From Thermoprotei archaeon (lineage in GTDB: Archaea; Thermoproteota; Thermoprotei; Gearchaeales; WAQG01), in the NCBI GenBank assembly GCA_038881895.1, contig JAVZOV010000002.1:316397-348396 (forward strand): a DNA stretch of 32,000 bases, read 5' to 3'. Below, piece by piece: positions 1 to 16,994 of the stretch. Position 1 is the stretch's first letter; every line of letters starts with the position of its first letter. The position numbers and the translations under genes are program-made. The notes below the pieces were generated by a model. It ran no database searches, had not been told where the DNA came from, and worked only from the letters and a program-made list of their open reading frames with translations.

Positions 1-293
1 ACATCGGATTTAAAAGTAAACGATGCTGAGTTTATATTAATGGTTATGGAGTTATTTTCTAAGTATACTGAAATATTGTTGATAAAAGACTTTATTGAAA
101 TTGTAACGCTTGCGTTTAAGGTTTTTGCTAAATAACCTGTATCATTAATTTGAGAATAGATTGTTATTGCCTCTGCTTTTGATATTGCTGTGTAGAGTGA
201 GTTTATGCTAATAGTGTTTATTAATATGATGATGATTGATAGGGAGATCCATGCAATTATATCTATGTAAGATTGGATTAAGCGTTCTGGCAT
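1..293 (-). CDS. Partial CDS (first 97 codons; continues beyond window start): hypothetical membrane-anchored/secreted protein
   Basis: Absent from the ORF track because there is no stop in the window. Hand translation of the reverse strand from the ATG at 293..291 gives MPERLIQSYIDIIAWISLSIIIILINTISINSLYTAISKAEAITIYSQINDTGYLAKTLNASVTISIKSFINNISVYLENNSITININSASFTFKSDV with no in-frame stop. It has one N-terminal hydrophobic helix, then an Ile/Ser/Asn/Thr-rich region with 4 N-x-S/T sequons. It is divergent from the pilus-like operon. Confidence 0.45.
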   Translation of the reverse strand, partial: MPERLIQSYIDIIAWISLSIIIILINTISINSLYTAISKAEAITIYSQINDTGYLAKTLNASVTISIKSFINNISVYLENNSITININSASFTFKSD

Positions 294-373: not shown

Positions 374-610
374 ATGAATGTTAGTAGGAATGATATACTA
401 GTTTGGGGATTGCGTATAATTTTTGATGAACTAAAGGAAATACAGGATAAATTGGCAGAATTAGAAAACAGAGTGCTTTCCTTAGAGGACTTGACTACTA
501 ATTCGCTTATGCTGACATCAATTTACCGTATTGAATATGTTAAGTGGTATACTGTGTATGTGTCTAAAATTGAGGATAAACTTATGGAGGCTAGAATCTC
601 ATGTCGATGA
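374..610 (+). CDS. Small hypothetical coiled-coil protein (78 aa), first gene of the pilus-like operon
   Basis: ORF track. Heptad-like LKEIQDKLAELENRVLSLEDL segment. Its stop overlaps the next ORF start by 10 nt. No recognisable family. Confidence 0.4.
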   Translation: MNVSRNDILVWGLRIIFDELKEIQDKLAELENRVLSLEDLTTNSLMLTSIYRIEYVKWYTVYVSKIEDKLMEARISCR

Positions 611-999
611 GAGTTACTCTCGAAGATTTGGCTTTGCTTATGGTTAAGAAAGGCATTTCTCCAGATACTGTTAAGGAACTTTTGACGGAGTTAGGGGCTA
701 CAAAGGAACGTATAGATAAAATTATGGACAGTTTTCCGAAATCAGAAGTTGTTGAAGAAAAGAAGAGTAAGATTAATGAAATAAGTCAAGAGAGAGTTGC
801 GAAAGAGCTGATGACAATATCATTTGAGGTTGTCAAAATTAAGAGTAATATAGAAATACACAAGTCAAGAATAGAAGGTTTAGAGACACGCGTTTCAAGT
901 TTAGAAGCTCGTTTTGAAGCTCTCTCAAATATTCTAATAGAATACGCTCCATTTCTTTTCAAGAGGGATAAAGATAATGCTAAATCAAATGTGCAGTGA
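601..999 (+). CDS. Hypothetical coiled-coil protein (132 aa)
   Basis: ORF track. Long amphipathic helix IEIHKSRIEGLETRVSSLEARFEALSNIL. Overlaps both the upstream and downstream ORFs (translational coupling). No recognisable family. Confidence 0.45.
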   Translation: MSMRVTLEDLALLMVKKGISPDTVKELLTELGATKERIDKIMDSFPKSEVVEEKKSKINEISQERVAKELMTISFEVVKIKSNIEIHKSRIEGLETRVSSLEARFEALSNILIEYAPFLFKRDKDNAKSNVQ

Positions 1000-2683
1000 G
1001 TCATGTAAAATTGTGAATGAAGGTAGTACACTGCGAGTTTATTGTCCTCATGATTTTCATGTATTTGGTCTTGAGACAAACAAAAAATGTAGAGAGAAGG
1101 TCTTTTCATCTATGTCTAGCAATACTTTTTTAATAGTAATGGAAAACGGAATTATTAACAAGATCTATAAGAAAAATGTCAAAGAGTTGTTTAATTATAT
1201 TCAACTGATTAATGCTCACTTTGATAAGATTAGAATTCAAAATATTTCTAAAGATGAACTAATCTATGATCCTGCCTTATTACGTTCAAGTTATTCTCCT
1301 AATGATCTTATGAAAACTTGGATTTACAAACATTCACCGTTTTTCAGAGAGCTTGTTGATCATTTTGCAATGAATTACTCTGATCATGAAATTTATGAAT
1401 GGTTATTTGAACCATACGTGGATTATTGTAATGGATTTAGGTCTATCATAGACTCTGAAAGGATAAATGTGTATGATGTGAATGTTGGTTTTGTGAATAT
1501 TTATGATCACGATAATCATTGTTTTTATATAATCGATGAAGTATCTAGAAAACCTAATGTCCAGGATCTTTTAGAAAAAATGCTGTGGCTAATCATAACT
1601 AAAAGCACTAATTTAAGTAAAATATTAGTACCTTTGTACGATGCTCATGTTCAAGAAATGTATCTGGATGGTGAAGATAGATTTATTTATTTGGATCATG
1701 AAGAATATGGTAGATGTTCTACTAATATATTTATTGCGCATACTGATATTGAAAGAATAAAGACTTATGCTAGTATTATAGGTAAGGGTAATGTTAGTCT
1801 ATCAAATCCGTCGTTAAAAATGGATATTATACTTAATGGAATTCCTCATAGGTTTTCTTTAGATTCGCCTCCGTTAGTCCTAACTACATCACTAAACATT
1901 AGAAATTTAGCAATGCAATATATGAACGTGCAAAAATTAATAAAATCAGGTACAATAACTGCAGAAGCTATAGCATACCTTATTTTCCTTGCTATGAATA
2001 GACTGAACATTGTGATTTGCGGAGAACCAAATAGTGGTAAAACAACTCTTGCAAATACTATTGATTTAGAATTACCAAAAGTTTGGCGTAGAATTTACAT
2101 CGAAGATGTTGTAGAGAGTCTTAATCTAAAAGATAAAGATGCTCATCAAATAAAAATTCAAACAACACCTTTTGAACAAGGAGCTAAAGTTTTCAAAAAG
2201 AGTACTGAGATAGTCAAGTTATTACATAGGTCGCCAGATTGGATATACCTAGGTGAAATACAGACAAAAGAACATACAAGAGCTATGTTTCATGCATTTT
2301 CAATGGGTCTAAAAGGTATTGCGACAACACATGCAGCATCGATCGAAGGACTTTTCTATAGATGGACAAAGCATTATATGATTAATTCAGATAGTATACG
2401 ACTTATTAATGTAGTTATTTTAATGGAACGTGAGATTACAAATTCAGGAAAAATTATAAGATACGTAAAAAATATTGTAGAAATTGATAATAACGGTGAT
2501 CCTGTAATCATTTTTAGCAGAATTAATGGTAAACTCACTAGAACTATAAGTTCACTATTTGACACTCCGAACGTGAAAAAATTAATAACGAACGGGAAAA
2601 GTTATGAGGAGATTAAAACTCTTTTTCTTAATATTCTAAATAGGATTAATGGAGGTATCGTAAATGAAGAAATCTACCAATAA
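977..2683 (+). CDS. Type II/IV secretion-family hexameric ATPase (FlaI/TadA/VirB11-like) with a long N-terminal extension
   Basis: Walker A ICGEPNSGKTTLAN; Asp box RIYIEDVVE; Walker B-like RSPDWIYLGEIQ; His box GIATTHAAS. About 340 residues precede Walker A, including a 4-Cys cluster (CSESC...C...C) at the extreme N-terminus. Confidence 0.85.
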   Translation: MLNQMCSESCKIVNEGSTLRVYCPHDFHVFGLETNKKCREKVFSSMSSNTFLIVMENGIINKIYKKNVKELFNYIQLINAHFDKIRIQNISKDELIYDPALLRSSYSPNDLMKTWIYKHSPFFRELVDHFAMNYSDHEIYEWLFEPYVDYCNGFRSIIDSERINVYDVNVGFVNIYDHDNHCFYIIDEVSRKPNVQDLLEKMLWLIITKSTNLSKILVPLYDAHVQEMYLDGEDRFIYLDHEEYGRCSTNIFIAHTDIERIKTYASIIGKGNVSLSNPSLKMDIILNGIPHRFSLDSPPLVLTTSLNIRNLAMQYMNVQKLIKSGTITAEAIAYLIFLAMNRLNIVICGEPNSGKTTLANTIDLELPKVWRRIYIEDVVESLNLKDKDAHQIKIQTTPFEQGAKVFKKSTEIVKLLHRSPDWIYLGEIQTKEHTRAMFHAFSMGLKGIATTHAASIEGLFYRWTKHYMINSDSIRLINVVILMEREITNSGKIIRYVKNIVEIDNNGDPVIIFSRINGKLTRTISSLFDTPNVKKLITNGKSYEEIKTLFLNILNRINGGIVNEEIYQ

Positions 2684-3194
2684 AAAAATAAACAGGGTCA
2701 CTATTAACGAAGGATCGTTTCTTGCATTAATTTCACTTATGTTACAAATTAGAGATATAAGGTCTATGTTAGAACGTGTTAAGAATCATTATCTTTTAAG
2801 CACAGATCAACAATTCTTAATGGGAAAGGTTGATGAAGGCCATGATCCGATTAAGGTACTTAATTCCATTAGTGTATTTAATAACTTAGACGTGCTCTCG
2901 ACATACCTTAACCTATACTCTTCGCATGGTATAACACCTATTGAACGTTATAACATTCAAGAATTGGCATTCTTAAAAACTGCAGGGCATTTGAAAAACC
3001 TTACCAATAAACTTACATTACGTATTCTTGTTATCACGTTCCTAAGTTACATTGTGCCTGTCGCATTAACAATTTTTTCTATTAAATATGGATTAATTGG
3101 CATGATATTATTTGTAAGCATTTTAATCATATCAACAACTTATATATCCTTAGACACGAAAAAAATGATACTTCTATTGAGGGATATTGAATGA
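2664..3194 (+). CDS. Half-size pilus platform membrane protein (TadB/EpdJ-like, single T2SSF-like unit), tentative
   Basis: 176 aa. Soluble helical N-part followed by two C-terminal TM helices (LRILVITFLSYIVPVALTIFSI, LIGMILFVSILIISTTYI). Position immediately after the secretion ATPase, with a 20-nt overlap. Confidence 0.5.
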   Translation: MKKSTNKKINRVTINEGSFLALISLMLQIRDIRSMLERVKNHYLLSTDQQFLMGKVDEGHDPIKVLNSISVFNNLDVLSTYLNLYSSHGITPIERYNIQELAFLKTAGHLKNLTNKLTLRILVITFLSYIVPVALTIFSIKYGLIGMILFVSILIISTTYISLDTKKMILLLRDIE

Positions 3195-3787
3195 ATGATG
3201 AAATTGAAGAATTAATGATTCATTTAAATCAAAATAGTACATTAGGTCTTGGTAAAGCACTGATGTTGTATAAGCCTAAGAGTAAATTCATTAAGAAAAT
3301 CTATGATACTATCAGTGTGATGTTATTAAAAGGTCATGAACCACAACGTGTTATTAGTTATGCATCTTATTTATTACCCAGAGGGACTTTTTTGAATTAC
3401 AATGTTCAAAATATAATTATTGGTGATCGTTCAGCAATATCTCGTAATATTAATTCCATCATAATCTCACGAAAAATACAGGAAATACACAGGGATTTTG
3501 AACTATGGTTATCATCTATGAAAATGAAGACATTTTTATTAACTATCATGAGTTCAATATTTTTAGCTGCTATGTCAAGATTACCTTTTATTCTAATTAG
3601 CAAAATTGAGCATTATTCAGATTGGTTTAATCTTATTCCATTCCTCTATGGATTTTTATGCATCGTGCTTGCTTTTCTTTCCTCAAACATTTATAGTGAA
3701 AAACGTTTCACATTATTAATATCCATACTCTCATTAGCTTCCTATACAATTATGATGATAATAATCAATACACTATTTAAAGTCTAA
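3191..3787 (+). CDS. Second half-size pilus platform membrane protein (TadC/EpdL-like), tentative
   Basis: 198 aa. ATGA start/stop overlap with the upstream gene. Soluble N-part with LLKGHEPQRVISYA, then three or more hydrophobic helices. Paired arrangement as in Tad/Epd systems. Confidence 0.5.
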   Translation: MNDEIEELMIHLNQNSTLGLGKALMLYKPKSKFIKKIYDTISVMLLKGHEPQRVISYASYLLPRGTFLNYNVQNIIIGDRSAISRNINSIIISRKIQEIHRDFELWLSSMKMKTFLLTIMSSIFLAAMSRLPFILISKIEHYSDWFNLIPFLYGFLCIVLAFLSSNIYSEKRFTLLISILSLASYTIMMIIINTLFKV

Positions 3788-3830
3788 CAATCAGTTAAAT
3801 TTGTGTTTAACTAAATTATCATGGTGAAAA

Positions 3831-4079
3831 ATGATGATAAGAGAACTATACGATCTGATAAAAAATCGTAAAGCATCACCATTAGTAGAGGAGGGTATGC
3901 TCTTGGGTTTAGCTGCGATAACATTTACAGTAATCCTTAGTATTGTTTCTAACATTATTACCTCAGTACAAAGTTCATCCGCATCAATGTCATCATCATT
4001 AAGTTCGGGTTTCACTAATTTTCTTAATCAATTAGCCGAGATACTCAATCAAATTGCAAGAGCACTAGGTATAAAGTGA
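3831..4079 (+). CDS. Flp-type (Tad/Epd-class) prepilin, 82 aa
   Basis: MMIRELYDLIKNRKA|SPLVEEGMLLGLAAITFTVILSIV. Basic leader ending in RKA, Glu at predicted mature +5 and Gly at +7, then a hydrophobic helix. This has the same spacing as the bacterial Flp G|xxxxEYG motif. GGTGA Shine-Dalgarno-like element upstream. Confidence 0.6.
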   Translation: MMIRELYDLIKNRKASPLVEEGMLLGLAAITFTVILSIVSNIITSVQSSSASMSSSLSSGFTNFLNQLAEILNQIARALGIK

Positions 4080-4630
4080 AAATTATGAAATACGATAAGA
4101 ATGACATAATTACTCTTTTTTCTTTGTTAATTATAATCGCAATAACCTTACATTGGATAAATCAGTATGTTTCTTCTTTGTCATATACATTTTATCAGTG
4201 GTTAATAATGCCCATCACAATTATTACACTATTTACTGTGGTTTTAAAGCTTTTAAACAAAAATAAATTACATGAGTATGCTAAAAAACATGGTTTTGTC
4301 TTAAGAACGTATAATAAAAATCAATATGCTTTCTCTATAAATAAATTAAATGTGTTAACTAATAATGTTCAACCAAGCGATGAGAATCTCTTACAATTAT
4401 CTTCACAATTGTTGGCATCGCAATTACTTTTTTCTTTAGTCATAGTGCCGACAAACGATAATGCAGAATTGTATTTGATCGTGTCAAAGCCAGTTAAAAA
4501 TCGTTCAGATATAGATAATCTTATCGATCAATTATCAGGTATAAAAGCTGTATTCAATGCACATCTTGGATTTACGATTACAAATGAGTACGAAAGAGTG
4601 ATAAAAAATGAGCTCTCAATACCCTTCTAA
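4076..4630 (+). CDS. Hypothetical membrane protein (two N-terminal TM helices plus a soluble C-domain)
   Basis: ORF track. GTG start overlapping the pilin stop (GTGA); an alternative ATG lies at 4085. TM helices IITLFSLLIIIAITLHWI and WLIMPITIITLFTVVLKLL. Overlaps the HerA-like gene by 23 nt. Confidence 0.5.
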   Translation: MKIMKYDKNDIITLFSLLIIIAITLHWINQYVSSLSYTFYQWLIMPITIITLFTVVLKLLNKNKLHEYAKKHGFVLRTYNKNQYAFSINKLNVLTNNVQPSDENLLQLSSQLLASQLLFSLVIVPTNDNAELYLIVSKPVKNRSDIDNLIDQLSGIKAVFNAHLGFTITNEYERVIKNELSIPF

Positions 4631-5810
4631 AAAAATCAATGATGAGTATTCTCATATTAAAAATATTATCAAAATAATAATATTTGTTAATAAGTTGAAA
4701 GAGATTAGTATGAAAAATGGTGAGAATATATTGTTAGGTAAAATAGATGACAACGGACCATTATTTTATATTTCTAAAAATGATTTGATAAATCATATTG
4801 GTATTTTTGGTCTTAGTGGATTTGGTAAAACAACTACTTGCATGAGGATATTGGAAGGGTTGGCTAATAATGGATACAAAATACTAGTTTTTGATTGGCA
4901 TGGTGAATATGAAAGATTCATAAGAAGTATTGGAGGATATTCTATAAATCTCGGTATTGATGATTATAGCATAAATCCTCTCATGATAATGCTTAATAAT
5001 GATATTGGTGAGCATGTTGGTTTTCTTACTGATATGTTCACTGAGGCTTTTCAATTATCTATGCCACAATCTTATGTTTTAAGGAAGATTCTGCTTGAAA
5101 TTATATCTAAAAGTAATATACAAGGTCTTACTGTTAACAGAATAATTGAGGAATTATCTCCGAAAAGAGGTCAATACGTGTCCAATTATGAAACAGAAAT
5201 TAGGATGGCACTGCTTAGGAGATTAGAACCGTTAAATTATGGTATAAGTAAAAATATTTTTAATGCTACGAAAGTGCTTAGCGCAGATGAATTGTTAAGT
5301 AATAATATATCTATAAACTTCAGGAATTTATCTGAGGAAGGATTAAAGAGAATTACTGCTTATACTATAATGAGAATACTTTATTCTCATTCTATAAAGC
5401 ACAGTTTAAAGAGAATTGTTGTTGTTCTTGAAGAGGCCAGAAACATTATACCACAACGAAGATATGGTGATCCTCCATCATTAGGTGAAAAAATGGTGTC
5501 TGAGCTTAGAAAACATGGCGTGACCATGATAATAATAACACAGCTGCCATCGCAAATTTCTTACGAAATTGTAAGATCGCTTTCTTTGATAATACTTCAT
5601 AGAGTAAATTCATTTGAGGAGGTTCTTAATGCAACAGGATTACAGAGTATTTTAATGGAAGCTGCTGAAGTTGCAAAGAAAGTGAGAACCTTAAATAAAG
5701 GTGAGGCGTTAATATTTTTACCATCAGAAAGTACACACTATAAAGTTTCAATATTGAAATCTAATTTAATGAATGATGAGAAAGATAGTAGTGAACTAAT
5801 AATATCATGA
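4608..5810 (+). CDS. HerA/FtsK-superfamily P-loop ATPase (DUF87/HerA-like, short form)
   Basis: Walker A HIGIFGLSGFGKTT; ILVFDWHGEY motif typical of HerA/DUF87; Walker B RIVVVLEEARNIIP. About 400 aa, too short to carry a full HerA N-terminal barrel. The start may instead be Met35 (4710). Confidence 0.7.
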   Translation: MSSQYPSKKINDEYSHIKNIIKIIIFVNKLKEISMKNGENILLGKIDDNGPLFYISKNDLINHIGIFGLSGFGKTTTCMRILEGLANNGYKILVFDWHGEYERFIRSIGGYSINLGIDDYSINPLMIMLNNDIGEHVGFLTDMFTEAFQLSMPQSYVLRKILLEIISKSNIQGLTVNRIIEELSPKRGQYVSNYETEIRMALLRRLEPLNYGISKNIFNATKVLSADELLSNNISINFRNLSEEGLKRITAYTIMRILYSHSIKHSLKRIVVVLEEARNIIPQRRYGDPPSLGEKMVSELRKHGVTMIIITQLPSQISYEIVRSLSLIILHRVNSFEEVLNATGLQSILMEAAEVAKKVRTLNKGEALIFLPSESTHYKVSILKSNLMNDEKDSSELIIS

Positions 5811-5827
5811 TGAACTATTGAATGGTC

Positions 5828-6397
5828 TCATCTGTTTTTGGATAAATAACTTAAAAGTTCTTCTAGATCTTTATCGTTTAAAAGTGTTAGCCACTCTATC
5901 CCTTGATTTTTAACTATTTTTTTACTGGCAGATATTATAAATCGTTCTATTTCTTCGGGCTTTTTATCTGTTACATCTAATTCAAAGACCTTATTATGAA
6001 ACCTTCTATAAGCGTCAGATGCACATATCCCTAGAAGTTCTGCCTCTACATTCTCTGCTATCTTTTTTTCACTATATCCTCGTGATTTAAGTATGCCAAG
6101 CAATCTTATTGGATTTAATCTGAAAACTATCACCAGATCAATATTTTTAGGGGCCGCATCAACTATATGAGTATCGATAATAACATCATCATTTCTTTTT
6201 AAAAGATTACGTATTTTACCTCTTACTCTATCGATATTTATGATATAAGAATCTCGTCTATCATCGTATTTTAAAAACAGATCATATTTTTTAGCTAAAT
6301 CGTTTACGTTAATATAATAATAATCATGTGCTTCAGAAAAATAAAGGGAGAATGTTGTTTTTCCAGTTCCTGGGGTTCCTGTTATTAATATATGCAT
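5828..6397 (-). CDS. Fap7/AK6-type adenylate kinase-like NTPase
   Basis: N-terminal P-loop MHILITGTPGTGKTT, about 190 aa, the typical size and layout of archaeal Fap7. Its start codon directly abuts the thermosome stop. Confidence 0.75.
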   Translation of the reverse strand: MHILITGTPGTGKTTFSLYFSEAHDYYYINVNDLAKKYDLFLKYDDRRDSYIINIDRVRGKIRNLLKRNDDVIIDTHIVDAAPKNIDLVIVFRLNPIRLLGILKSRGYSEKKIAENVEAELLGICASDAYRRFHNKVFELDVTDKKPEEIERFIISASKKIVKNQGIEWLTLLNDKDLEELLSYLSKNR

Positions 6398-8050
6398 TTA
6401 ATCTTTTTCCTCTTCTTCCTTCTTCTCTTTTTCTGGACCTTTTTCAGCCTTGCTTATCTTGGATGCAGCTATTATATCGTCTATTCTTAGAATCGTTGCA
6501 GCCGCTTCAGTGGCAGAACTTACTGCTTGTATCTTAACTGATGCAGGTTCAATAACACCTAGTTTCTCCATATCATCAATTTTGCTCGTGTATCCATTAA
6601 TTCCATATGACACGTTGCCTTGCTCGTGTGCTGTTTTTAGTTCTGCTAATGCATCTATTGGATCACCGCCAGCATTCTCAGCGAGGGCTCTTGGGATTGC
6701 TTCTACTCCTTTTGCAAATGCTTCAATAGCTAATTGTTCTCGTCCACCGACAGTTGATGCGTATTTTCTCAATGTCTTACTTATCTCAATTTCTATTGCT
6801 CCACCACCATATACAACTCTTGGATCCTCTATTACATCTGATACTACACTCAGTGCATCGATAATTGATCTCTCTGCCTCATCGACTAATCTTTCGAGTC
6901 CACCCCTTATCAATATGCTTACTGATTTTGGATTCTTGCAACCTTCCACAAATACCATTTTGTCGCCTGCAACGCGTCGTTCTTCCACTAATGCTGCTTC
7001 TCCTAAGTCTTCTGGTGTCAAATCTTCAATGTTTGTAACTATTTTACCACCTGTGGCAAGAGCCAGTTTTTCCATATCAGATTTCTTCGCTCGTCGTACA
7101 GCCAGAATGCCTACTTTAGCTAAATGATGTTGCGCTATATCATCAATACCTTTTTGGCAAACGACAACGTTAGCACCGGTAGACTTTATTTTGTCTACCA
7201 TGTTTCTTAGCATTCGCTCTTCTTCATCCAAAAATGCTTTCATTTGCTCTGGATTTGATATTCTAATTTCTGCATCAATCTCAGTTTTCTCTATTTCTAA
7301 CGGAGCATCTATTAATGCAATCTTAGCATTAGTAACTTTTTTAGGCATACCTGGGTGCACAACCTCTTTATCAACTATTACTCCATAAACTAATGCTGTG
7401 TCTAGCAATCCTCCACCCTGTTTTTTGATTAACTGTATCTTATTTATGTCGGCAATTCTCTTCCCGTTCCGTTCTTCTGCTATTGCTTTAACAGCTTTCA
7501 CGCATATGTCTGCAAGGTGTTCTTTGACTGAAGAAACTGATTTACCATGTATTGATGTCAATGCTACTTTTTTAAGTATTTCATCATCATCAATGTTTAC
7601 TTTTATTGCTAATGAGTCAATAACTTCTCTAGTTTTAATTTCGGCTTTTCTATATCCGCTAACTATGACTGTCGGATGCACGTTTTTATCGATGAGCTCT
7701 TCAGCTTCTTTTAGTAGCTGACCTGCTATTACAACTGAAGTTGTTGTGCCATCTCCAACTTCATCATCCTGAGTTTTTGCTATTTGAACTAATAATTTTG
7801 CTGCAGGATGTTGAACCTCTATTTCGTTAAGTATTGTAGCACCATCATTTGTAATAGTTATGTCACCAATTGTATCAATAAGCATCTTATCCATACCTCT
7901 GGGTCCTAATGATGATTTTACAGTTTCCGCTACTGCCATTGCAGCAGTTATATTGGCTCGTAATGCATCGTAACCAGTTGTTCTTTGCGTTCCTTCCTTG
8001 AGTATTAATACAGGAACCGCTGATGTACCACCCGAAGGCACACTTGCCAT
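6398..8050 (-). CDS. ths: Thermosome subunit (group II chaperonin)
   Basis: Hallmark motifs [34 protein letters not shown]. 550 aa with an acidic/lysine-rich C-terminal tail. Confidence 0.97.
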
Positions 8051-8466: not shown

Positions 8467-9177
8467 ATGGTTTTGGATGCAAAATCTAGAGAGGTCGTAA
8501 GAAAAAAGTTATCTGGTATGACAAATCAGCTTACGTTACTTTATTTTCATGATGAAAATAAAGATGATTGTCCTTATTGTGAGACTTTGAAAGAATTCCT
8601 TTATGAAATATCTGAACTCTCTAACAATAAACTGATTATCCAATTATATGTTAAAGATAAAAATGATGACATATTTGCCAAATTTAATGTAGAGAAAGCC
8701 CCGGTAATAATATTCGATGGGTATAACATTAAATACTTAGGAGCACCTGTTGGACAAGAGACCTGGGCTTTTCTAGAAACTATAGTTCTGGCCTCAAAGC
8801 ATACGCCAAAACTTTCAACTGAAACTTACAACAAATTAAAAACGCTTGAGAATAAGGCGGTTGTGGAAGTTGTTGTTACACCGAGTTGTCCATGGTGTCC
8901 TTACGCAGCTCTGCTCTCTAATAGTGCTGCAATAGCAACCAATAATGTAGAATCGAATATAGTTGAAGCGTACGAATTTCCGGAGATTGCTGACAAATAT
9001 AACGTGAGTGCTGTACCAACAGTTGCAGTAAATGGGCAAGTCATGTTCATAGGAGTACCCCAAGAAAATGATTTTGCAGCTGCACTGAAAGGAGAATATC
9101 AACCACACCTAGAGGAAACTAGTGAAGAAGTAGAAGAATTAGAGCATGAACACGAGCATCACCATCACTCTCATTAG
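8467..9177 (+). CDS. Protein disulfide oxidoreductase (two thioredoxin-fold units, glutaredoxin-like) with a His-rich C-terminal tail
   Basis: Two CxxC sites (CPYC in the N-unit, CPWC in the C-unit) about 110 aa apart, as in archaeal PDO. Ends in ELEHEHEHHHHSH. Confidence 0.8.
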   Translation: MVLDAKSREVVRKKLSGMTNQLTLLYFHDENKDDCPYCETLKEFLYEISELSNNKLIIQLYVKDKNDDIFAKFNVEKAPVIIFDGYNIKYLGAPVGQETWAFLETIVLASKHTPKLSTETYNKLKTLENKAVVEVVVTPSCPWCPYAALLSNSAAIATNNVESNIVEAYEFPEIADKYNVSAVPTVAVNGQVMFIGVPQENDFAAALKGEYQPHLEETSEEVEELEHEHEHHHHSH

Positions 9178-9267: not shown

Positions 9268-9483
9268 ATGGGAAAAATTCGTACACGTATGATAAAGAGG
9301 ATCGCGTTGAGGTTGCTAGAGTTATATCCAGATCAATTTACTACTGACTTTGAGAAAAACAAAAAATTTCTTAAAGAAAAATTCGGGTCTATAATGTACT
9401 CAAAAAAGATAATGAACAAAATTGCAGGTTATATTACAAGTCGTGTGGATATTAAAGAGAGAGATAAAGAATTATCACTTTAG
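9268..9483 (+). CDS. rps17e: Ribosomal protein S17e (eS17)
   Basis: MGKIRTRMIKRIALRLLELYPDQFTTDFEKNKK is the characteristic eS17 N-terminus. 71 aa. Confidence 0.9.
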   Translation: MGKIRTRMIKRIALRLLELYPDQFTTDFEKNKKFLKEKFGSIMYSKKIMNKIAGYITSRVDIKERDKELSL

Positions 9484-9512: not shown

Positions 9513-9821
9513 TTATCCTCCGTGTACTACGGAAATTATTGTGATAGTGTCGTTATTTTTAAGTGGAGTGCTAAGGTACTGTAAAAGTCTGTAATCAACT
9601 TTATTTATTAATATGATTATGTCAGATTCTATCTCGTTATTCTTAAACAGTCTTTCTTTGAACGATGCGTTTTTCGTTTTTACTAGTTTTTCTAGAAGAT
9701 TTTTTAGTGTTGAGTTTTCTGGGATTTGGATTATTTCATGTTTTGTACCTGCTAGGGCTCCTATTACACCATAGTATTCTATCTTAATTGTTATCTCATT
9801 GATATTCATAACATGCTTCAT
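9513..9821 (-). CDS. MoaD/ThiS-family beta-grasp small protein with C-terminal Gly-Gly (sulfur carrier / ubiquitin-like modifier)
   Basis: About 100 aa, ending in NNDTITIISVVHGG-stop, which matches the MoaD/ThiS/SAMP C-terminal pattern (D-x-V-x-I-x-P-P-V-S-G-G-like). Overlaps the upstream gene stop. Confidence 0.65.
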   Translation of the reverse strand: MKHVMNINEITIKIEYYGVIGALAGTKHEIIQIPENSTLKNLLEKLVKTKNASFKERLFKNNEIESDIIILINKVDYRLLQYLSTPLKNNDTITIISVVHGG

Positions 9822-10759: not shown

Positions 10760-13006
10760 TCACAGTTCATGTGATGTTCGTTCTATGACAGAAAGTCTAG
10801 TGTCGTCATCAGATATAAATTGATAACCATTCTCTACATTCGCATAATAAATTAAATATTTGCCTCTAGCACCGCATACAGGACATGTTTTCTGGATTCC
10901 GACACTTAATCTTTTGCATGCCATACAAAAAACAAAATTTTTGTTATATTGAAGTATGTTAACATTATAGGATGGGAATGTTCTGGATAAGTGATTCATT
11001 ATTGTTTCTGGTGATGAAATTTCGTCATCTAACCATACTTTTACGGCGTGACCACCAGATAAAAATGGATCTACTTCTGAATCTAAAGTTATTAAGTCTT
11101 GTATATCAATAATTCTCCATTCTTCTATTAATCCATTCGAATATTTTCCAGGCTTTGTTCTTGTCATTAGTATACTGTAGTATTTTGGATAGAGTTTTCT
11201 GTCCAGCATTGAAAATCTGTATGCCGGTTCGTCTCTTATATTTTGGGCAAGTAGTATTTTTAAACTCTCTTGTTCGGAGTATTCTCTAATAATTTTGTTA
11301 ATCTCGTTGAGTATTTTAATTAACAACGATCGCGATGATGGTGTGGAAAAATAATCGTGATCTGTTAAAAGAAGTATTGCTTCATACAAACCAATTGGTG
11401 TGATTATATGGAAGATATTATCATTATTTATGTATAATGTTCCCTTATATTCATGTAATGTGTAGGGTAAAGTCTCATTTTTTATCATTAATTCTAGCAA
11501 GTTATTCTTAGATGCAGCAATTTTTACAGCAGACCTTATTATATCTCCAATAAAGTTTGGTAATGTATTTTCATTTAAATCACTTTTCATAACTAACCTA
11601 GGCATATTGATTGCTGTAACCGATGCTATGTCATATTGTGAGGAATCATAATGAGAAAGTGCAACTCTATAAAGATCATTAGTGTAAATAGTATCCAGTA
11701 ATGATGACCTCAGCTTATTAATAAAAGTAACCGTATAACCTGATAAATTAAGTTTTATTGCATTCATCAGATTATTTTTTGAATCATCACTCAGAGATTC
11801 TACATAAACATGTATGATTGGAAGAATAGGAGGCCTACCATTAGAATTAAGTTGCAATAGTGCATTAATGAACGCATTAAAAACACGGTGAGCCTCATCA
11901 ATATATTCATTAAGAGTATGAATTGTACCATTTATTTTGATCTCCAGATTTTCGAATCCCTTAGGTAGATCTGTATGTAAACCTAAAGATACTGTTAATT
12001 TGTTTCTCCATATGAATACATTATTTATGTTATAAATAAAGTGAATAAAATATGTTACTAGTTCGTTATCAGGAATATTTTTTGTATAAGGAGCTAATAA
12101 GAAATTGAATAATGGTAATGATTGGCCACCAGAAACTTCCTGATCAAAGTTATATAGCATATACATAATTCTCATTAACGCATTATTAAGAGACTTCATT
12201 CCATTTGATGGTAAAAAAAGATTCATATCATCAAATTTATAGTTTAATAGTATGTACATGTCATGATTTATATTAACAGTAGACAATGACCACTCATCAA
12301 GATCTATAACATGTAAATCACCAGAGGAGTGTGCATCTGAAAGATCTTTAGAAAGAAGTCTTAATAATGTGTAGTCTCTAAGCATTGATGAACTAAGTTT
12401 ATAGTGTATGAGCCTAGGGTTCTTTATTTTTCTTTCATTACCAAATATTATCTGATGCACATCATGAACTGGTAAACCTAACCTCATGACCTGTAGGCGA
12501 ACGTCATCTAATCCTCTTTCAACAAGAATAGAATTCACCAGCTCTCTTATGAATGCAGATGTGAGATATTTTATAGGCATTTTGCTAAGTCTGAGCTCTG
12601 CTTCTCTTGCTATATCCTCTGCAAGACTCCTCGGCAATTTTGCCTCTTTAATTAATGAGCTAACAATTTTTTGAGCATCAAACGGTTCTAATGCTGGTCT
12701 CGATGTTCTTACAAGAAGTTTTGAATACTTAATTGAGTATTCTATTTCATTAATAAGCTCTAAGATTTTGCGTCCTAATCCTGTCAATATATATTCTCCT
12801 GTCTCTAAATCTTTATCGATTAATCCATGAGACTGTAACATTCTTATATGATAACTTAAGTTGCTTGTTTCTTCCTGTCGCAAATGGAGTTTTTCTTTTA
12901 TTTCAGAGAAACGTAAAGATCCATATGAACCTAACAACTTAAGTATCTCAATGCGCTTCCCTTCACTAACAATCCCAAATATGTTATATTCAATATGCCA
13001 CGGCAT
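10760..13006 (-). CDS. wHTH (ArsR-like) + ATP-cone + class III ribonucleotide reductase (NrdD)-like protein lacking catalytic cysteines
   Basis: N-terminus RIEILKLLGSYGSLRFSEIKEKL...LSYHIRMLQSHGLI (winged helix). LLVRTSRPALEPFDAQKIVSSLIKEA...FIRELVNSILVERG (ATP-cone). DAHSSGDLHVIDLDEW (NrdD-type motif). C-terminal ribbon CMAC-x10-CPVC. Only 4 Cys in the whole protein, all in the ribbon. Confidence 0.75.
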   Translation of the reverse strand: MPWHIEYNIFGIVSEGKRIEILKLLGSYGSLRFSEIKEKLHLRQEETSNLSYHIRMLQSHGLIDKDLETGEYILTGLGRKILELINEIEYSIKYSKLLVRTSRPALEPFDAQKIVSSLIKEAKLPRSLAEDIAREAELRLSKMPIKYLTSAFIRELVNSILVERGLDDVRLQVMRLGLPVHDVHQIIFGNERKIKNPRLIHYKLSSSMLRDYTLLRLLSKDLSDAHSSGDLHVIDLDEWSLSTVNINHDMYILLNYKFDDMNLFLPSNGMKSLNNALMRIMYMLYNFDQEVSGGQSLPLFNFLLAPYTKNIPDNELVTYFIHFIYNINNVFIWRNKLTVSLGLHTDLPKGFENLEIKINGTIHTLNEYIDEAHRVFNAFINALLQLNSNGRPPILPIIHVYVESLSDDSKNNLMNAIKLNLSGYTVTFINKLRSSLLDTIYTNDLYRVALSHYDSSQYDIASVTAINMPRLVMKSDLNENTLPNFIGDIIRSAVKIAASKNNLLELMIKNETLPYTLHEYKGTLYINNDNIFHIITPIGLYEAILLLTDHDYFSTPSSRSLLIKILNEINKIIREYSEQESLKILLAQNIRDEPAYRFSMLDRKLYPKYYSILMTRTKPGKYSNGLIEEWRIIDIQDLITLDSEVDPFLSGGHAVKVWLDDEISSPETIMNHLSRTFPSYNVNILQYNKNFVFCMACKRLSVGIQKTCPVCGARGKYLIYYANVENGYQFISDDDTRLSVIERTSHEL

Positions 13007-13108
13007 TGTTCTCTAATAAGAGTATTTTTACCCAAATATAAATTACAACCACGCCAATAACAATGATAGACTATGTAGTACTGAATTAGCTCGCCTGTGG
13101 AGGCAAGG

Positions 13109-14068
13109 TTAATAGGCTAGCTGATACAGCCCTTAAATGAAATGGAATGAAGTTAAACCCAAAGGATAATGAACAACAAACCAATGAAAACATTAAAACA
13201 AGAACCCAACCAACTTTAAACACAAAGAATATTAACTAAAGAGTAGGTGTAACAGATCGATTATTCAACCTGCATTGTTAAATAAGAGAGGCAAGTAGAT
13301 GAAATTCTTCAGAGTCTGAGACCAGAGTTTCCAGTGTTGGGTTCTGGATTAGTAGGAATGCATAGTGAATTGCTATTTTCATTCCTACTTAACCCTTCCC
13401 CCTCAATTAGCTCATCGGGGTCTCTCTGGGTGAACCCTTCTCCCCGCATCTGAAGGTTTAACACCGCTACAATATCCCTATCCATTGTTAATCCGCATTC
13501 TTCGCATCTCATTATCCTGCCCAGATAGGAAGCCATGCTTCCGGAGCAGACTGGGCAGGTTTTAGATGAGTTGGCTGGGTTAACGTATTTGACTAGAAGG
13601 TTAAGCCATTTAAGCTTGTATTCAAGCATGAGTTGGAATGTTCTTGCGCTCCACTTTGAGAGCTTGGGTTGGTGAGCAGTTTTTGAATAGATAGATTTTT
13701 ATAGGCGTTTTGAGTTGATTTTTTATGCCGATATGGGTCCTGCTTCCAATGCGAATAGGACGACAGGCAGGCGGGGAAACTTCCAATGTGCCGTCCTTCA
13801 CCGTTGGCGGCGAAGGCCCTCGAAAGCGTTTGCCGATAGAGGGAAGGGACGAAAATCCATGAATCCCACAACGGTTTACACCCCAGATTGCTGGTTTTGA
13901 GAGACTCGCAACTCTCCCAGAGCTCGTTATCCTATGAGTTATTGCGTTTGGTTCACATTGTAAACATTACCTACCTAGCCGAGCATTTTCTTATATCGTA
14001 TTTATCCTCAGAACATTTAAATACCATTCATTTCATTAAAGTTCCAGATTTTCTGGCTAGCCAATTAA
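13109..14068 (-). mobile_element. Decayed IS200/IS605-family (TnpB-type) insertion remnant, GC-rich relative to its surroundings
   Basis: Contains the TnpB C-terminal fragment. There is a visible jump in GC content around 13300-13950. It is bounded by an imperfect inverted pair, TTAATAGGCTAGC...TTAAATGAAATG at about 13109-13157 versus the reverse complement of about 14014-14068 (TTAATTGGCTAGC...TTTAATGAAATG). Boundaries are approximate. Confidence 0.4.
13309..13898 (-). pseudogene. tnpB: TnpB (OrfB, RuvC-like RNA-guided nuclease family) remnant: intact C-terminal about 129 codons, decayed upstream part
   Basis: The open frame 13698..13309 reads ...KLSKWSARTFQLMLEYKLKWLNLLVKYVNPANSSKTCPVCSG...RCEECGLTMDRDIVAVLNL (zinc finger plus RuvC-III DRD motif). 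An in-frame TAA lies at 13701..13699. Upstream, a different frame gives AFEGLRRQR-stop (RuvC-II-like). No N-terminal two-thirds of the protein is present. Confidence 0.7.
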
Positions 14069-16890: not shown

Positions 16891-16994
16891 ACCCCTGGCT
16901 TCCGGGTCTCCCCTATATCATCCCAAATCCTCATCGGATAGTCAACGCTCCAATAACTGGAGCCCGTCGCCATACCTGGCTAGGCCACGGCCCC
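16872..16994 (-). tRNA. tRNA-Trp (anticodon CCA) with a 49-nt intron after position 37
   Basis: The minus strand reads GGGGCCG-UG-GCCUAGCCAGGUAUGGC-G-ACGGG-CU-CCA-G, then the intron UUAUUGGAG...GGGGAG, then A-CCCGG-AAGCC-AGGGG-UUCAAAU-CCCCU-CGGCCCC-A. The acceptor and T arms pair perfectly. The intron UGGAG pairs with the anticodon-loop CUCCA. No CCA end is encoded. Confidence 0.85.

Follow-up and report, generated by a model that had tools for sequence, protein, structure and literature searches.

DNA import requires CedD in two species of Sulfolobales, whereas cell aggregation does not (PMC11868833, PMC11823120). In this order the SSO0283/CedD gene is found with S17e, Urm1 and thermosome genes and without pilus genes (PMC2948915), and Saci0667 is urmylated in vivo (PMC4569737). 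In Methanococcus, natural transformation requires an Epd-type pilus, and the DNA transporter of archaea has not been identified (PMC10133366). A link to HerA goes unmentioned in the 2016 census of archaeal type IV pili. Here we describe a locus of an uncultured, hot-spring Thermoprotei archaeon (assembly GCA_038881895.1, contig JAVZOV010000002.1) in which the parts of a type IV filament machine are joined to a HerA-type ATPase that is likely the counterpart of CedD. The window, i.e. the whole stretch of DNA analysed, is 32,000 nucleotides long.

Gene layout of the locus

As given by the ORF list and translations, positions 374-5810 hold eight plus-strand ORFs, most of which overlap (by 10, 23, 20, 4, 4 and 23 nt, the two 4-nt overlaps being ATGA and GTGA, respectively); the sole gap between them is 43 nt long (3788-3830; Table 1). 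The start of the 184-aa ORF is uncertain: it is possibly ATG 4085, the public annotation being of 181 aa, in which case the GTGA overlap would become a 5-nt gap. A relative with 75% identity has the same eight genes by independent gene calls.

Table 1. Features of the locus, with positions in the window
Position	Strand	Feature	Size	Details
1..293	-	Pilin-like gene, 5' part, runs off window	97 codons	Translation starts MPERLIQSYIDIIAWISLSIIIIL; N-terminal hydrophobic helix
294..373	.	Divergent intergenic region		A+T-rich TATA-like boxes ~25-30 nt upstream of both start codons (read from sequence)
374..610	+	Small coiled-coil protein, role unknown	78 aa	Sub-threshold coiled-coil-type matches only
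601..999	+	Small coiled-coil protein	132 aa	Only weak SMC/Rad50/scaffold coiled-coil matches
977..2683	+	Assembly ATPase, GspE/FlaI (T2SSE) family	568 aa	Pfam T2SSE 53.5 bits vs cut-off 24.9
2664..3194	+	Membrane protein A, half-size	176 aa	Helical cytoplasmic domain, then 2 TM helices
3191..3787	+	Membrane protein B, half-size	198 aa	Six short helices, then 3 TM helices
3794-3811	+	Inverted repeat		GTTAAA-N6-TTTAAC, inside the operon's only intergenic gap (read from sequence)
3823-3827	+	Shine-Dalgarno-like site		GGTGA, ahead of pilin ATG (read from sequence)
3831..4079	+	Flp-like prepilin	82 aa	Predicted cleavage between ...NRKA and SPLVEEG...
4076..4630	+	2-TM protein	184 aa, or 181 aa from ATG 4085	Soluble domain ~120 aa
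4608..5810	+	CedD-type HerA/VirB4-superfamily P-loop ATPase	400 aa	ATPase module only

The repeat and the Shine-Dalgarno-like site in the gap might place the pilin gene under separate translational or transcriptional control, although this is speculative, the stem being of just 6 A+T-rich bp. On the divergent side, the TATA-like boxes read TTTTTAAG before ATG 374 and, on the opposite strand, TTAAAATTAATAA before the start at 293. Judged from sequence alone, these are putative promoters that could give leaderless transcripts. The gene at 1-293, whose product has no Pfam family match, is the first in a divergent group of genes for small pilin-like proteins: its orthologue in L001 (5299-5682, minus strand, 127 aa) leads a series of four of these genes, with five in L004. 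By a crude count without a control, 2-6 small minus-strand ORFs with an N-terminal hydrophobic segment are present at this place in most related loci. Housekeeping genes make up the remainder of the window (thermosome, S17e, Urm1, NrdD, 5S rRNA, RpoD, enolase, S2), and a scan of its ORFs found no prepilin peptidase, integrase, NurA, Mre11/Rad50 or Ced gene. The pilus locus is likely chromosomal and vertically inherited.

Proteins encoded by the locus

The 568-aa ATPase has Walker A (GEPNSGKTT), an Asp box, Walker B (WIYLGEIQ), a His box (TTHA) and the stretch IYIEDVVE, as well as four Cys (C6, C10, C23, C38) within its N-terminal ~200 aa. In NCBIfam it scores equally for TrbB (3.1e-19, nearly full-length) and FlaI (2.5e-19). 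Among solved structures, however, it is nearer to archaeal GspE2/FlaI than to VirB11 (A. fulgidus GspE2 2OAP, 1.8e-19; FlaI, 3e-16; CpaF, 2e-9; VirB11, 3e-6).

Membrane proteins A and B are paralogous, with a profile-profile E of 4.9e-5 and alignment at the conserved Gly motif and TM proline. Protein A, which lacks a Pfam match and keeps its topology and position across related loci, is likely a divergent TadB/TadC-like platform half, and protein B is likely a divergent half of T2SSF type. Nevertheless, the T2SSF identity of both is only weakly supported: the signals are sub-threshold, yet consistent across three methods. The protein B family profile is collinear with the entire EpsF/GspF cytoplasmic domain, including both Gly motifs (E = 0.13-0.65), and Pfam T2SSF is the sole family matched by two protein B orthologues (E = 0.002-0.004, under the cut-off). 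Foldseek with the poor AF2 model of protein B (pLDDT 63) gave no significant match, the cytoplasmic domains of EpsF, OutF and PilC being repeated among the weak ones. An exhaustive HMMER search with protein B found its own family only.

Among the small proteins of the system, the Flp-like prepilin is the most conserved. Its homologues, present in 78 of 85 loci, share the motif [KR][GA] before and [ASVTI][QP][LI][IVL]EE after the predicted cleavage site, with both Glu invariant. The processed protein would have Glu at positions +5 and +6, a single hydrophobic helix and, C-terminally, a short amphipathic helix. Its best natural PDB match is the type IV pilin 7TGG, in register across the site (RKG, then FTLIE; E = 0.34), and it has no Pfam or NCBIfam family match. 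In two lineages (L086 and L024) an A24 prepilin peptidase gene lies within the cluster.

The 400-aa ATPase carries Walker A (GLSGFGKTT), the signature DWHGEY (FDWHGEY) and Walker B (VVVLEEA), and matches Pfam DUF87/HerA with 66.8 bits against a cut-off of 23.2. In NCBIfam it scores 2.6e-43 for CedD versus 1e-11 for HerA and 5e-11 for VirB4; the match spans positions 192-523 of the 527 in the CedD model, with 148 bits, under the 600-bit equivalog cut-off. All tested family members likewise score best against CedD (1e-43 to 1e-68, versus 1e-11 to 1e-21 for HerA and 1e-7 to 1e-12 for CedB). The family's N-terminal domain does not resemble CedD's in sequence. With the family profile, HerA 4D2I is matched at 1.9e-35, and the AF2 model of a fused relative (P0013, pLDDT 80) matches HerA (1.5e-19) and R388 VirB4 (8e-17). 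No similarity of the 400-aa protein to the KaiC/FlaH or MinD/TadZ families was found. Its gene also occupies the chromosomal position of cedD, adjoining thermosome beta, S17e and Urm1 (Sulfolobales position from PMC2948915, PMC4569737, PMC10653856 and PMC11823120). We conclude that the ATPase is probably the counterpart of CedD in sequence and position, albeit below the equivalog cut-off. A closer CedD-like gene (P0106, 290 bits) lies between rpoG and a thermosome gene, without pilus genes.

The 184-aa protein has no family match and just 4 homologues among 5.8 billion proteins; it is likely lineage-specific and fast-evolving. It may serve as a membrane anchor or N-terminal module for the downstream ATPase, a presumption based on position and topology only. 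Two loci of Bathyarchaeia type (L015, L086) encode a standalone 2-TM protein in this place, and it shows homology (E = 1e-19 to 1e-22) to the N-terminal domain found in fused ATPases. The Nitrososphaeria ATPase has a fused soluble N-terminal domain in place of such a protein. Because no similarity could be detected between the window's 184-aa protein and the N-terminal domain in fused ATPases, only position and topology argue for their equivalence. In most lineages the HerA-type ATPase has no TM segment (as in P0013). Both coiled-coil proteins are lineage-specific: the 78-aa protein has homologues in just 3 related loci, the 132-aa protein in 4 loci by one search and 6 by another, and genes of like size stand at the latter's position elsewhere (148 aa in L086; 69 + 153 aa in L089).

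A preliminary description had proposed an overlapping eight-ORF operon with the motifs quoted above, and no prepilin peptidase, integrase, NurA, Mre11 or Rad50 in the window; both claims held when checked against the ORFs and translations. Profile searches upheld its choice of a HerA/DUF87-type rather than a KaiC/FlaH-type ATPase, but its 'HerA/FtsK-type' label is too broad for a CedD counterpart. Its two half-size polytopic proteins are paralogous by profile-profile comparison, and their T2SSF identity is only weakly supported.

Conservation across TACK archaea

In 57 of the 60 related loci with sufficient upstream flank, a FlaI/GspE-type ATPase is encoded less than 3 kb upstream of the HerA-type gene on the same strand. 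This adjacency occurs in at least five TACK lineages (Nitrososphaeria, Bathyarchaeia, Brockarchaeota, Methanomethylicia and Thermoprotei MAGs), and 66 of 78 loci have the HerA start within -60 to +40 nt of the pilin stop (mode, -4). Given that all eight genes are repeated in the relative, that the core order recurs in 57/60 loci and that the pilin/HerA spacing is kept, the arrangement is well beyond chance expectation. The conserved core comprises five genes, namely the assembly ATPase, the two half-size platform-like proteins, the Flp-like prepilin and the HerA-type ATPase; both coiled-coil genes and the 184-aa gene lie outside it and are confined to the window's lineage. Reduced loci (L079, L022) retain the pilin-HerA pair, and L056 and L088 have only the HerA-type ATPase.

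Conservation of the neighbourhood also takes in the kinase, thermosome, deoxyhypusine synthase and TFB genes. Because the whole neighbourhood is syntenic, adjacency alone overstates functional linkage, and the case for coupling depends on same-strand overlap. The HerA-type gene shares the strand of the pilus genes, and the kinase and thermosome genes are convergent. The system extends beyond 374-5810 to the divergent pilin-like cluster, a TFB paralogue and, in some loci, the A24 prepilin peptidase. The TFB paralogue, ~6 kb upstream and dedicated, would probably control expression of the pilus locus.

The preliminary description had named loss of the pilus-HerA linkage in relatives as grounds for refutation, and the linkage held. 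Its eight-gene unit and its extent of 374-5810 held in part, the conserved unit being of just five genes and the system reaching further. Its claim of an undescribed layout stands within the literature searched, in which we found no described pilus class with this gene set or layout.

Proposed function and rival explanations

The filament parts and their conserved linkage are shown: a FlaI/GspE-type ATPase, two half-size platform proteins, a Flp-like major pilin and divergent minor pilin-like proteins. We read the locus as a type IV filament machine of Tad/Epd-like layout with a CedD-type hexameric ATPase built in, serving filament-coupled DNA uptake or exchange. This function, which is inferred from homology and has roughly as much against it as for it, is the most likely among the readings considered; the DNA-transfer role first suggested is thus supported as an inference and not demonstrated. 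A prepilin peptidase encoded elsewhere would cut the Flp-like protein after [KR][GA], the assembly ATPase and platform would polymerise it into a short pilus or pseudopilus across the envelope, and the HerA/CedD-type ring would dock on the cytoplasmic face, tethered in the window's lineage by the 2-TM protein encoded directly upstream. Filament-captured DNA would then be pulled into the cell by the ring with ATP.

In favour of DNA uptake are the family's best scores against CedD, the need for CedD in DNA import in two Sulfolobales species, the shared position beside thermosome beta, S17e and Urm1, the role of the Epd-type pilus in Methanococcus transformation, and the HerA/VirB4 translocase fold of the ATPase, as modelled for P0013. 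Against it, the function is borrowed from a paralogue or orthologue at 148 of the 600 bits required, experimental data on the system are lacking, the T2SSF and Flp assignments miss curated HMM thresholds, the ATPase family's N-terminal domain is unlike CedD's in sequence, and the pilin's conservation is unusual for a surface filament. The operon encodes no candidate membrane channel, neither a CedA/VirB6-like nor a ComEC-like polytopic protein. Lacking a TM segment in most lineages, the HerA-type ATPase would need to attach to the pilus motor, and an accessory motor would fit this equally well.

The accessory motor is the main rival and remains possible. Here the HerA-type ring is a second ATPase of a filament machine that serves in adhesion or some other role at the cell surface, without moving DNA; the ring might extract or retract pilins, in the way that VirB4 dislocates VirB2, or sit beneath the assembly ATPase with a regulatory or structural task, like FlaH in the archaellum or TadZ in Tad. 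The DNA import of CedD would be a later specialisation in Sulfolobales. In support, pilin and HerA-type genes are the tightest conserved pair, often with a 4-nt overlap, and outlast loss of the assembly ATPase; TM segments are missing from most family members; the locus has no gene for a channel protein; Epd and Tad systems have a secondary ATPase at the equivalent place (PMC6668835); the VirB4 fold match almost equals that of HerA; and archaea have no known retraction ATPase (PMC4858521). However, CedD, the closest characterised relative, is needed for import and not aggregation, KaiC/FlaH or MinD/TadZ similarity is absent, and HerA-clade enzymes of known substrate act on nucleic acids (PDB matches).

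Pseudopilus-driven protein export of type II secretion kind, with the HerA-type ATPase as unfoldase or feeder, is unlikely. A short, highly conserved pilin fits an internal piston better than an exposed fibre, several minor pilin-like proteins are encoded, and VirB4/VirD4 relatives also serve protein-secreting T4SSs (PMC12857230). On the other hand, no conserved candidate substrate gene was found at the locus, the nearest homologue works in DNA import, and to our knowledge no HerA-clade enzyme moves proteins.

Reading the locus as a minimal apparatus of conjugation type (T4SS/Ced/Ted-like) instead of a type IV filament, with the T2SSE ATPase as VirB11, the HerA-type ATPase as VirB4/CedB and the small protein as a VirB2/CedA1-like pilin, is very doubtful. 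The equal TrbB and FlaI scores and the R388 VirB4 fold match favour it, and T4SS loci have a small membrane protein directly before VirB4. Yet by structures the 568-aa ATPase is far nearer GspE2/FlaI, the small protein has the prepilin-type motif ([KR][GA], then xxxxE) and no VirB2 hairpin, two related loci have A24 peptidase genes, a VirB6/CedA-like polytopic protein is absent, and core-chromosome synteny is conserved around the locus without integrase or plasmid genes.

Inherited gene order without functional coupling, the HerA-type gene merely abutting the pilus operon as part of an informational block (kinase, thermosome, S17e, Urm1), draws on the equally conserved neighbours, the pilus-free Sulfolobales gene, the urmylation of Saci0667 and the lone ATPase in L056 and L088, but is most improbable given the pilus-strand start/stop overlap in most lineages beside convergent kinase and thermosome genes, the additional 2-TM gene embedded in that run of overlapping genes in the window's lineage and Bathyarchaeia-type loci, and a pilin-HerA pair that outlasts rearrangement.

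Taken together, the pilus-CedD-type layout is an undescribed candidate DNA-uptake machine, its function inferred, that recurs across TACK archaea. If the DNA-uptake reading is true, it would be an archaeal analogue of the competence pilus plus translocase and likely the ancestral context of CedD.

Conservation and layout of the locus

An alignment of the HerA-type protein was run against 185,579 species-level genomes and recovered 188 relatives. The 79 best loci were retained; they belong to Nitrososphaeria, Bathyarchaeia, Brockarchaeota, Methanomethylicia and other Thermoproteota MAGs, and Methanosuratincola/Methanomethylicia are among the carriers of the operon. Among the loci with at least 4 kb of upstream sequence, 57/60 have an orthologue of the 568-aa assembly ATPase on the strand of the HerA-type gene and within 3 kb upstream of it. 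The preliminary description had joined a pilus core to a membrane protein and a HerA-type gene and had accepted that the idea would fail if homologous loci lacked the last two genes, so that the adjacency was not conserved; for the HerA-type gene the adjacency held. Between the two ATPase genes are two membrane proteins (~190-280 aa) and one protein of 60-87 aa, the stop codon of the small gene lying within -60 to +40 nt of the HerA-type start in 66 of 78 loci, most commonly with a 4-nt overlap. The three exceptions to the linkage are degraded loci: in L022 only the assembly ATPase is gone, a ParB-like insertion standing in its place, and the two membrane genes, small gene and HerA-type gene persist, L079 has only the small gene and the HerA-type gene, and L056 the HerA-type gene alone. 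The conserved unit comprises five genes, given that this core recurs in related loci and that neither coiled-coil gene nor the 184-aa gene occurs beyond close relatives of the window. A gene set for a type IV filament and the gene of a CedD-type ATPase are shown to stand together as a single conserved unit, coupled by overlaps on one strand.

The eight plus-strand ORFs of the preliminary description are the same in the ORF table, and all of the sequence motifs that it quoted were found in the translations. Their junctions are overlaps of 10, 23, 20, 4, 4 and 23 nt together with a single 43-nt gap, which lies 5′ of the 82-aa gene. In the public annotation the 184-aa gene starts at ATG 4085 (181 aa), so the 'GTGA' overlap at this junction is uncertain. 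Independent gene calling in a 75%-identical relative gives the same eight genes. The window itself comes from the MAG of an uncultured 'Thermoprotei archaeon', and its GC content is flat along the operon (~0.28-0.33). Six of the eight proteins, namely the half-size membrane pair, the 82-aa and 184-aa proteins and both coiled-coil proteins, have no match to a curated family in Pfam or NCBIfam. It should also be noted that the sole intergenic gap holds an inverted repeat, which may be due to chance in A+T-rich DNA, and that a GGTGA ribosome-binding-like site of the pilin gene follows directly 3′ of it.

Upstream of the operon, 3-5 small genes in divergent orientation follow one another; the pilin-like proteins that they encode each have a hydrophobic helix at the N-terminus and are without a Pfam or NCBIfam match. 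The pilus system is larger than the eight genes. A divergent TFB (TFIIB) paralogue is found ~6 kb upstream of the HerA-type gene in about 60 loci. By analogy with the control of ups/ced by TFB3 in Sulfolobales, it could be a dedicated regulator. A deoxyhypusine synthase gene is often nearby, and in one related locus (L089) an RpoG gene as well. On the downstream side, 81 of 90 loci have a Fap7-like kinase gene in convergent orientation, and in 29 a thermosome gene comes next. Since flanking genes are conserved both upstream and downstream, the locus is in all likelihood an old, vertically inherited chromosomal one and not a mobile element. The reading as a mobile element or conjugative plasmid was rejected on the core synteny, the housekeeping flanks, the flat GC and the presence of the same flanking genes across classes.

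Several further observations concern the loci outside this core, with coordinates in the table. In L022, from a Nitrososphaerota MAG, a minus-strand block with ParB-like genes stands at the place of the assembly ATPase and the remaining operon is intact, which could mean that an inserted element disrupted the operon. Within the window, a patch of distinct composition contains what is probably a fragmented remnant of an IS200/IS605-type TnpB. The tRNA match was missed by ARAGORN, and the 5S rRNA gene stands alone.

Coordinates of features in the window and in related archaeal loci
Source	Feature	Position	Strand	Remarks
Window	first divergent small gene	1-293	-	runs off the window
Window	eight-ORF operon	374-5810	+	78, 132, 568, 176, 198, 82, 184 and 400 aa
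Window	N-terminus of 568-aa ATPase	977-1100	+	four Cys in first 38 residues: C6, C10, C23, C38
Window	inverted repeat	3794-3811		GTTAAA-N6-TTTAAC
Window	HerA/CedD-type ATPase	4608-5810	+	400 aa
Window	Fap7-like kinase	5828-6397	-	
Window	thermosome	6398-8050	-	
Window	thioredoxin/glutaredoxin-like protein	8467-9177	+	two CxxC (CPYC, CPWC); His-rich tail HEHEHHHHSH
Window	S17e	9268-9483		
Window	Urm1	9513-9821	-	
Window	NrdD (anaerobic ribonucleotide reductase)	10760-13006	-	N-terminal fusion to winged-helix/ArsR-like domain (DUF7347, HTH_5) and ATP-cone
Window	GC peak	13001-14000		GC 0.425 vs ~0.31
Window	106-aa and 92-aa ORFs	13309-13871	-	Cas12f1/TnpB-like TNB zinc-ribbon domain in the 106-aa ORF, E = 7.8e-18; the overlapping 92-aa ORF lies just upstream
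Window	tRNA match	16872-16994	-	Rfam; 123 nt, enough for an intron inside
Window	5S rRNA gene	17393-17514	-	Rfam
L022	block with ParB-like genes	3700-7600	-	
L001	TFB paralogue	3398-4432	divergent	44-55 bits, cut-off 384; Zn ribbon and cyclin repeats
L087	TFB paralogue	743-1669	divergent	as for L001
L089	TFB paralogue	250-1188	divergent	as for L001

The assembly ATPase and the HerA/CedD-type ATPase

The 568-aa protein is a member of the GspE/FlaI/TadA family, scoring 53.5 bits against Pfam T2SSE PF00437 (cut-off 24.9), and it carries a Walker A (GEPNSGKTT), an Asp box (IYIEDVVE), a Walker B (WIYLGEIQ) and a His box (TTHA). Its nearest solved structures are archaeal GspE2 (2OAP, 1.8e-19) and FlaI (3e-16), with CpaF (2e-9) and VirB11 (3e-6) far behind. 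In NCBIfam, the scores of 69 bits for FlaI (equivalog cut-off 550), 69 for TrbB (305), 58 for BasE (1000) and 55 for VirB11 (250) all fall short. Given that no named equivalog cut-off is reached, the protein represents a distinct subfamily; an Ups, Aap or Bas identity was rejected for the same want of equivalog-level scores. The cysteines at its N-terminus recall the small Cys-rich N-terminal domains of the subclade 4D/4F secretion ATPases (PMC4858521).

The preliminary description had called the 400-aa protein a HerA/DUF87-type ATPase and named a KaiC/FlaH-type accessory as one finding that would overturn its proposal. The call held: the protein scores 66.8 bits against Pfam DUF87/HerA PF01935 (cut-off 23.2) and its family profile finds HerA 4D2I at 1.9e-35, and for the fused relative P0013, modelled with AlphaFold2 at pLDDT 80, Foldseek finds the same structure at 1.5e-19, so that membership of the HerA/DUF87 clade of the FtsK-HerA superfamily is met by both profile and fold. 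No KaiC or FlaH family is among its Pfam and NCBIfam matches at E <= 1, and the KaiC/FlaH identity was discarded on these zero matches. Membership of the VirB4 type is not met either, the best score being 41 bits for the window protein and 27-56 bits for its relatives, against a cut-off of 590. With the P0013 model, R388 VirB4 is found at 8e-17 and its C-terminal domain superposes at a TM-score of 0.75. This likeness to VirB4 is mainly limited to the ATPase domain (4AG5, TM-score 0.75), which dominates the Foldseek alignments of the fused relative.

Among NCBIfam models, CedD is the best match to the 400-aa protein at 2.6e-43, compared with 1e-11 for HerA and 5e-11 for VirB4. For every family member scored, CedD is the top curated family, by 30-50 orders of E-value over HerA, CedB and VirB4. 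The match (NF053655) amounts to 148.5 bits and covers model positions 192-523 only, and the fused relatives reach 174-232 bits, again for the ATPase part only. The CedD equivalog criterion, which asks for a full-length match above 600 bits with TM segment, N-terminal domain and ATPase in one chain, is not met.

In Sulfolobales, an 'SSO0283-family membrane-associated HerA-like ATPase' is accompanied by S17e, Urm1 and a thermosome beta gene that is transcribed divergently (PMC2948915); Saci0666 is the thermosome beta subunit, Saci0667 the HerA/FtsK-superfamily protein and Saci0669 Urm1 (PMC4569737, PMC10653856). The window gene occupies this same chromosomal position of CedD, beside thermosome beta, S17e and Urm1 (compared via PMC2948915, PMC4569737, PMC10653856 and PMC11823120). 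A closer CedD-like protein, P0106 (290 bits), is flanked by rpoG and a thermosome gene, with PAN and PAC2 upstream of it, and has no pilus genes; in S. acidocaldarius, Saci0656 (PAN) and Saci0658 (PAC2) are similarly near cedD (PMC4569737). From the curated scores and the chromosomal position, we consider CedD the positional counterpart and closest sequence relative of the window ATPase, although orthology is not established without a rooted tree. As a separate observation, the whole block from the Fap7-like kinase to Urm1 matches the Urm1/thermosome-beta/SSO0283 neighbourhood of Sulfolobales. Saci0667 (CedD) is urmylated in vivo (PMC4569737; neighbourhood, PMC2948915), and regulation of the window ATPase by Urm1 is conceivable.

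In most lineages the HerA-type ATPase measures ~580-600 aa; its N-terminal domain is alpha/beta and soluble, and TM segments are absent. In the Bathyarchaeia-type loci (L015, L086), this domain is part of a separate 2-TM protein followed by a short ATPase, and the separate protein matches the fused domain at E = 1e-19 to 1e-22; a genuine split is shown for these loci only. The 184-aa protein of the window has no similarity to the N-terminal domain of 63 fused relatives by HMM or profile-profile comparison, and only 4 homologues in a database of 5.8 billion proteins. With no such similarity found, the reading of the 184-aa and 400-aa proteins as a split CedD or a split fused ATPase is unsupported for the window; the 184-aa protein shares position and topology with the separate 2-TM protein, and its equivalence to the N-terminal module rests on these only. 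Furthermore, the N-terminal domain of the fused relatives shows no sequence similarity to that of CedD-like P0106.

The platform candidates and the putative prepilin

The two half-size membrane proteins, A (176 aa) and B (198 aa), are paralogues (profile-profile E = 4.9e-5) whose alignment matches up a conserved Gly motif and a proline in the TM region. Each consists of a helical cytoplasmic domain followed by TM helices, a topology that fits T2SSF (six helices plus TM helices). The window proteins have no Pfam match to T2SSF PF00482; in a Pfam check covering 54 family members, two orthologues of protein B match T2SSF as their sole family (E = 0.002-0.004, 18 bits, cut-off 25.2). The protein-B profile is collinear with the entire cytoplasmic domain of EpsF/GspF, both Gly motifs included, in three PDB orthologues, at E = 0.13-0.65 only. 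The AlphaFold2 model of protein B is of low confidence (pLDDT 63), and Foldseek with this poor model gave nothing significant, the cytoplasmic domains of EpsF, OutF and PilC being among the weak matches. A word-indexed search and an exhaustive HMMER search (1.84 billion representatives) returned nothing outside the family and no known T2SSF protein. T2SSF membership of proteins A and B is thus probable and unproven.

A pair of adjacent one-domain platform genes, together with a very short pilin, is a hallmark of Epd/Tad systems (PMC6668835), and we took two such genes and a short major pilin as the criterion for a Tad/Epd-like layout (Denise et al. 2019). It is met, with two paralogous half-size genes contiguous in nearly all loci and a pilin precursor of 60-87 aa. 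Homologues of the small protein were found in 78 of 85 loci. Their common motif, [KR][GA]/[ASVTI][QP][LI][IVL]EE with the slash at the predicted cleavage site, is followed by ~20 hydrophobic residues and is kept in 73 distinct sequences, with both Glu invariant in a 20-sequence alignment. Type IV prepilins carry a basic residue at -2, a small one at -1 and Glu at +5. The small protein satisfies what is asked of a type IV (class III signal peptide) prepilin, namely this pattern, the hydrophobic helix and an A24 peptidase in related clusters: such a peptidase is present in the adjoining divergent cluster of two related loci, L086 (31.3 bits, cut-off 26.5) and L024, and none was found in the window. 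The best natural PDB match of the small-protein profile is the type IV pilin 7TGG, in register at RKG/FTLIE, with E = 0.34, and neither Flp/Fap PF04964 nor any NCBIfam pilin model matched 20 family members at E <= 0.1. We conclude that the 82-aa protein is likely a Flp-like prepilin in size and shape, its cleavage being inferred from the sequence.

Possible functions and comparison with known systems

One mechanism for the operon is DNA uptake. The filament, possibly a short pseudopilus given the conservation of the pilin, would capture or guide DNA, and the HerA-type ring, tethered in the window lineage by the 2-TM protein, would pull it inward. This is an inference, a role in DNA import not having been shown for the operon, and we judge it slightly less likely to be right than wrong, and the most likely of the readings considered. 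The main rival, which remains possible, assigns the ring to the filament machine itself, as an extra motor or accessory that either handles pilin as VirB4 does or is a partner of the FlaH/TadZ kind. In its favor, no channel protein is encoded, most members of the HerA-type family are soluble, and no linkage is tighter than that of the pilin-ATPase pair. Each of three other readings is unlikely, and less likely than either of these two: export of protein, a machine of T4SS type, and mere synteny (synteny alone is weak evidence of function at this locus).

A bolder form of the DNA-uptake reading is that the operon is the ancestral home of CedD, a filament machine with its own HerA-type DNA pump, and that it has been inherited vertically since early TACK archaea, serving DNA uptake or exchange without ComEC or CedA; we offer this as one joint and tentative claim. 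ComEC homologues are absent from archaea, and their transporter for natural transformation is unknown (PMC10133366); CedD was reportedly recognised only in 2025, with partners and mode of action unclear. If the ancestral-home reading is true, the operon supplies the missing archaeal DNA-uptake motor, and in Sulfolobales the pump alone was retained there and became connected instead to Ced, a system derived from conjugation. The operon couples a CedD-type ATPase physically and translationally to a complete type IV filament core, which makes it a concrete, testable candidate for a filament-plus-pump DNA-uptake device and suggests an origin for CedD. Two questions thereby become directly testable: what moves DNA across the membrane in archaea, and where CedD came from. 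Should the DNA reading be wrong, the operon would still be the first known type IV filament machine with a HerA-family second ATPase.

A type IV pilus operon with a HerA/CedD-type ATPase is not described in the open-access literature searched, which does not exclude a prior description; within that literature, the earlier statement that the layout is not a described system held. The 2016 census of archaeal type IV pili has HerA as a superfamily name only (PMC4858521), and the two CedD papers mention neither neighbouring pilus genes nor homologues outside Crenarchaeota. The feature is real, strongly conserved and, as far as is known, undescribed, its parts being drawn from known superfamilies.

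CedD (Saci_0667 / SiRe_1715; SSO0283 family, arCOG00286), an ATPase of crenarchaeal Ced DNA import, is the best curated family for the window ATPase and its tested relatives. CedD itself is characterised by its requirement for import of DNA and by TFB3-dependent induction upon DNA damage. They share the HerA/VirB4-superfamily fold and the DWHGEY signature, which is also seen in P0106. The succession of membrane anchor, N-terminal domain and ATPase is comparable in the two only when the 184-aa protein is included; between the N-terminal domains there is no relation in sequence, and the ATPase module alone matches. In the literature examined cedD stands alone as a gene, its product acting with CedA, CedA1, CedA2 and CedB, whereas the window gene closes a type IV filament operon, and no Ced genes were found in the window.

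T4SS and Ted-Ced systems (VirB11, VirB4, VirB2) likewise pair a T2SSE-family with a HerA/VirB4-superfamily ATPase, have a small membrane protein gene just 5′ of the HerA/VirB4-type gene and share the R388 VirB4 fold match. Unlike them, the window system has an assembly ATPase that is not VirB11-like, a pilin with a prepilin-peptidase motif, no counterparts of VirB6/CedA, VirB8 or VirD4, and a core chromosomal, non-mobile locus. With the Com pilus and ComFA/ComEC of monoderm bacteria there is functional analogy only, that of a minimal type IV filament with ATPase, platform and short pilins, linked to a DNA translocase that is cytoplasmic and driven by ATP. Neither the DEAD-box helicase ComFA nor the channel ComEC has a homologue among the window proteins, and the operon has no channel.

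The subclade 4D loci of Thermoproteales (Makarova, Koonin and Albers 2016), which are type IV pilus-like, have a secretion ATPase whose small N-terminal domain contains Cys, a short protein of 4-5 TM segments for which descent from TadC by divergence and shortening was proposed, and an adjoining TFIIB homologue and RNA polymerase RPB8/RpoG gene (PMC4858521). Loci related to the window similarly carry the TFB paralogue and, in L089, RpoG. The 4D loci reportedly lack pilins and any other component; the role suggested for them is related to transcription, and no HerA-type ATPase is mentioned (PMC4858521). Orthology of the ATPases is not established; subclade 4D appears to be a reduced relative of the window system, and the operon may explain these enigmatic pilin-less ATPase-TFIIB loci.

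The bacterial Tad/Flp pilus and the Epd pilus of Methanococcus maripaludis, which stand for the 'Epd-like' clade of the type IV filament superfamily, resemble the window system in several ways (PMC6668835, PMC10133366). The Epd pilus is needed for natural transformation. In each case there is a single ATPase of the GspE/FlaI family, a pair of adjacent half-size genes (in the window, for probable platform proteins), and a major pilin that is very short and has Gly/Ala at -1 and Glu at +5. The locus also encodes a secondary ATPase. Unlike in these systems, the secondary ATPase is of HerA/CedD type and not TadZ (MinD-like) or FlaH (KaiC-like), the gene order is ATPase-platform-platform-pilin, and platform and pilin stay below the Pfam T2SSF and Flp_Fap thresholds; unlike in Tad, the assembly ATPase is nearer to GspE2/FlaI than to CpaF. 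Epd-like systems have been described mainly in methanogens, and the window system extends Tad/Epd-like two-platform systems to TACK archaea.
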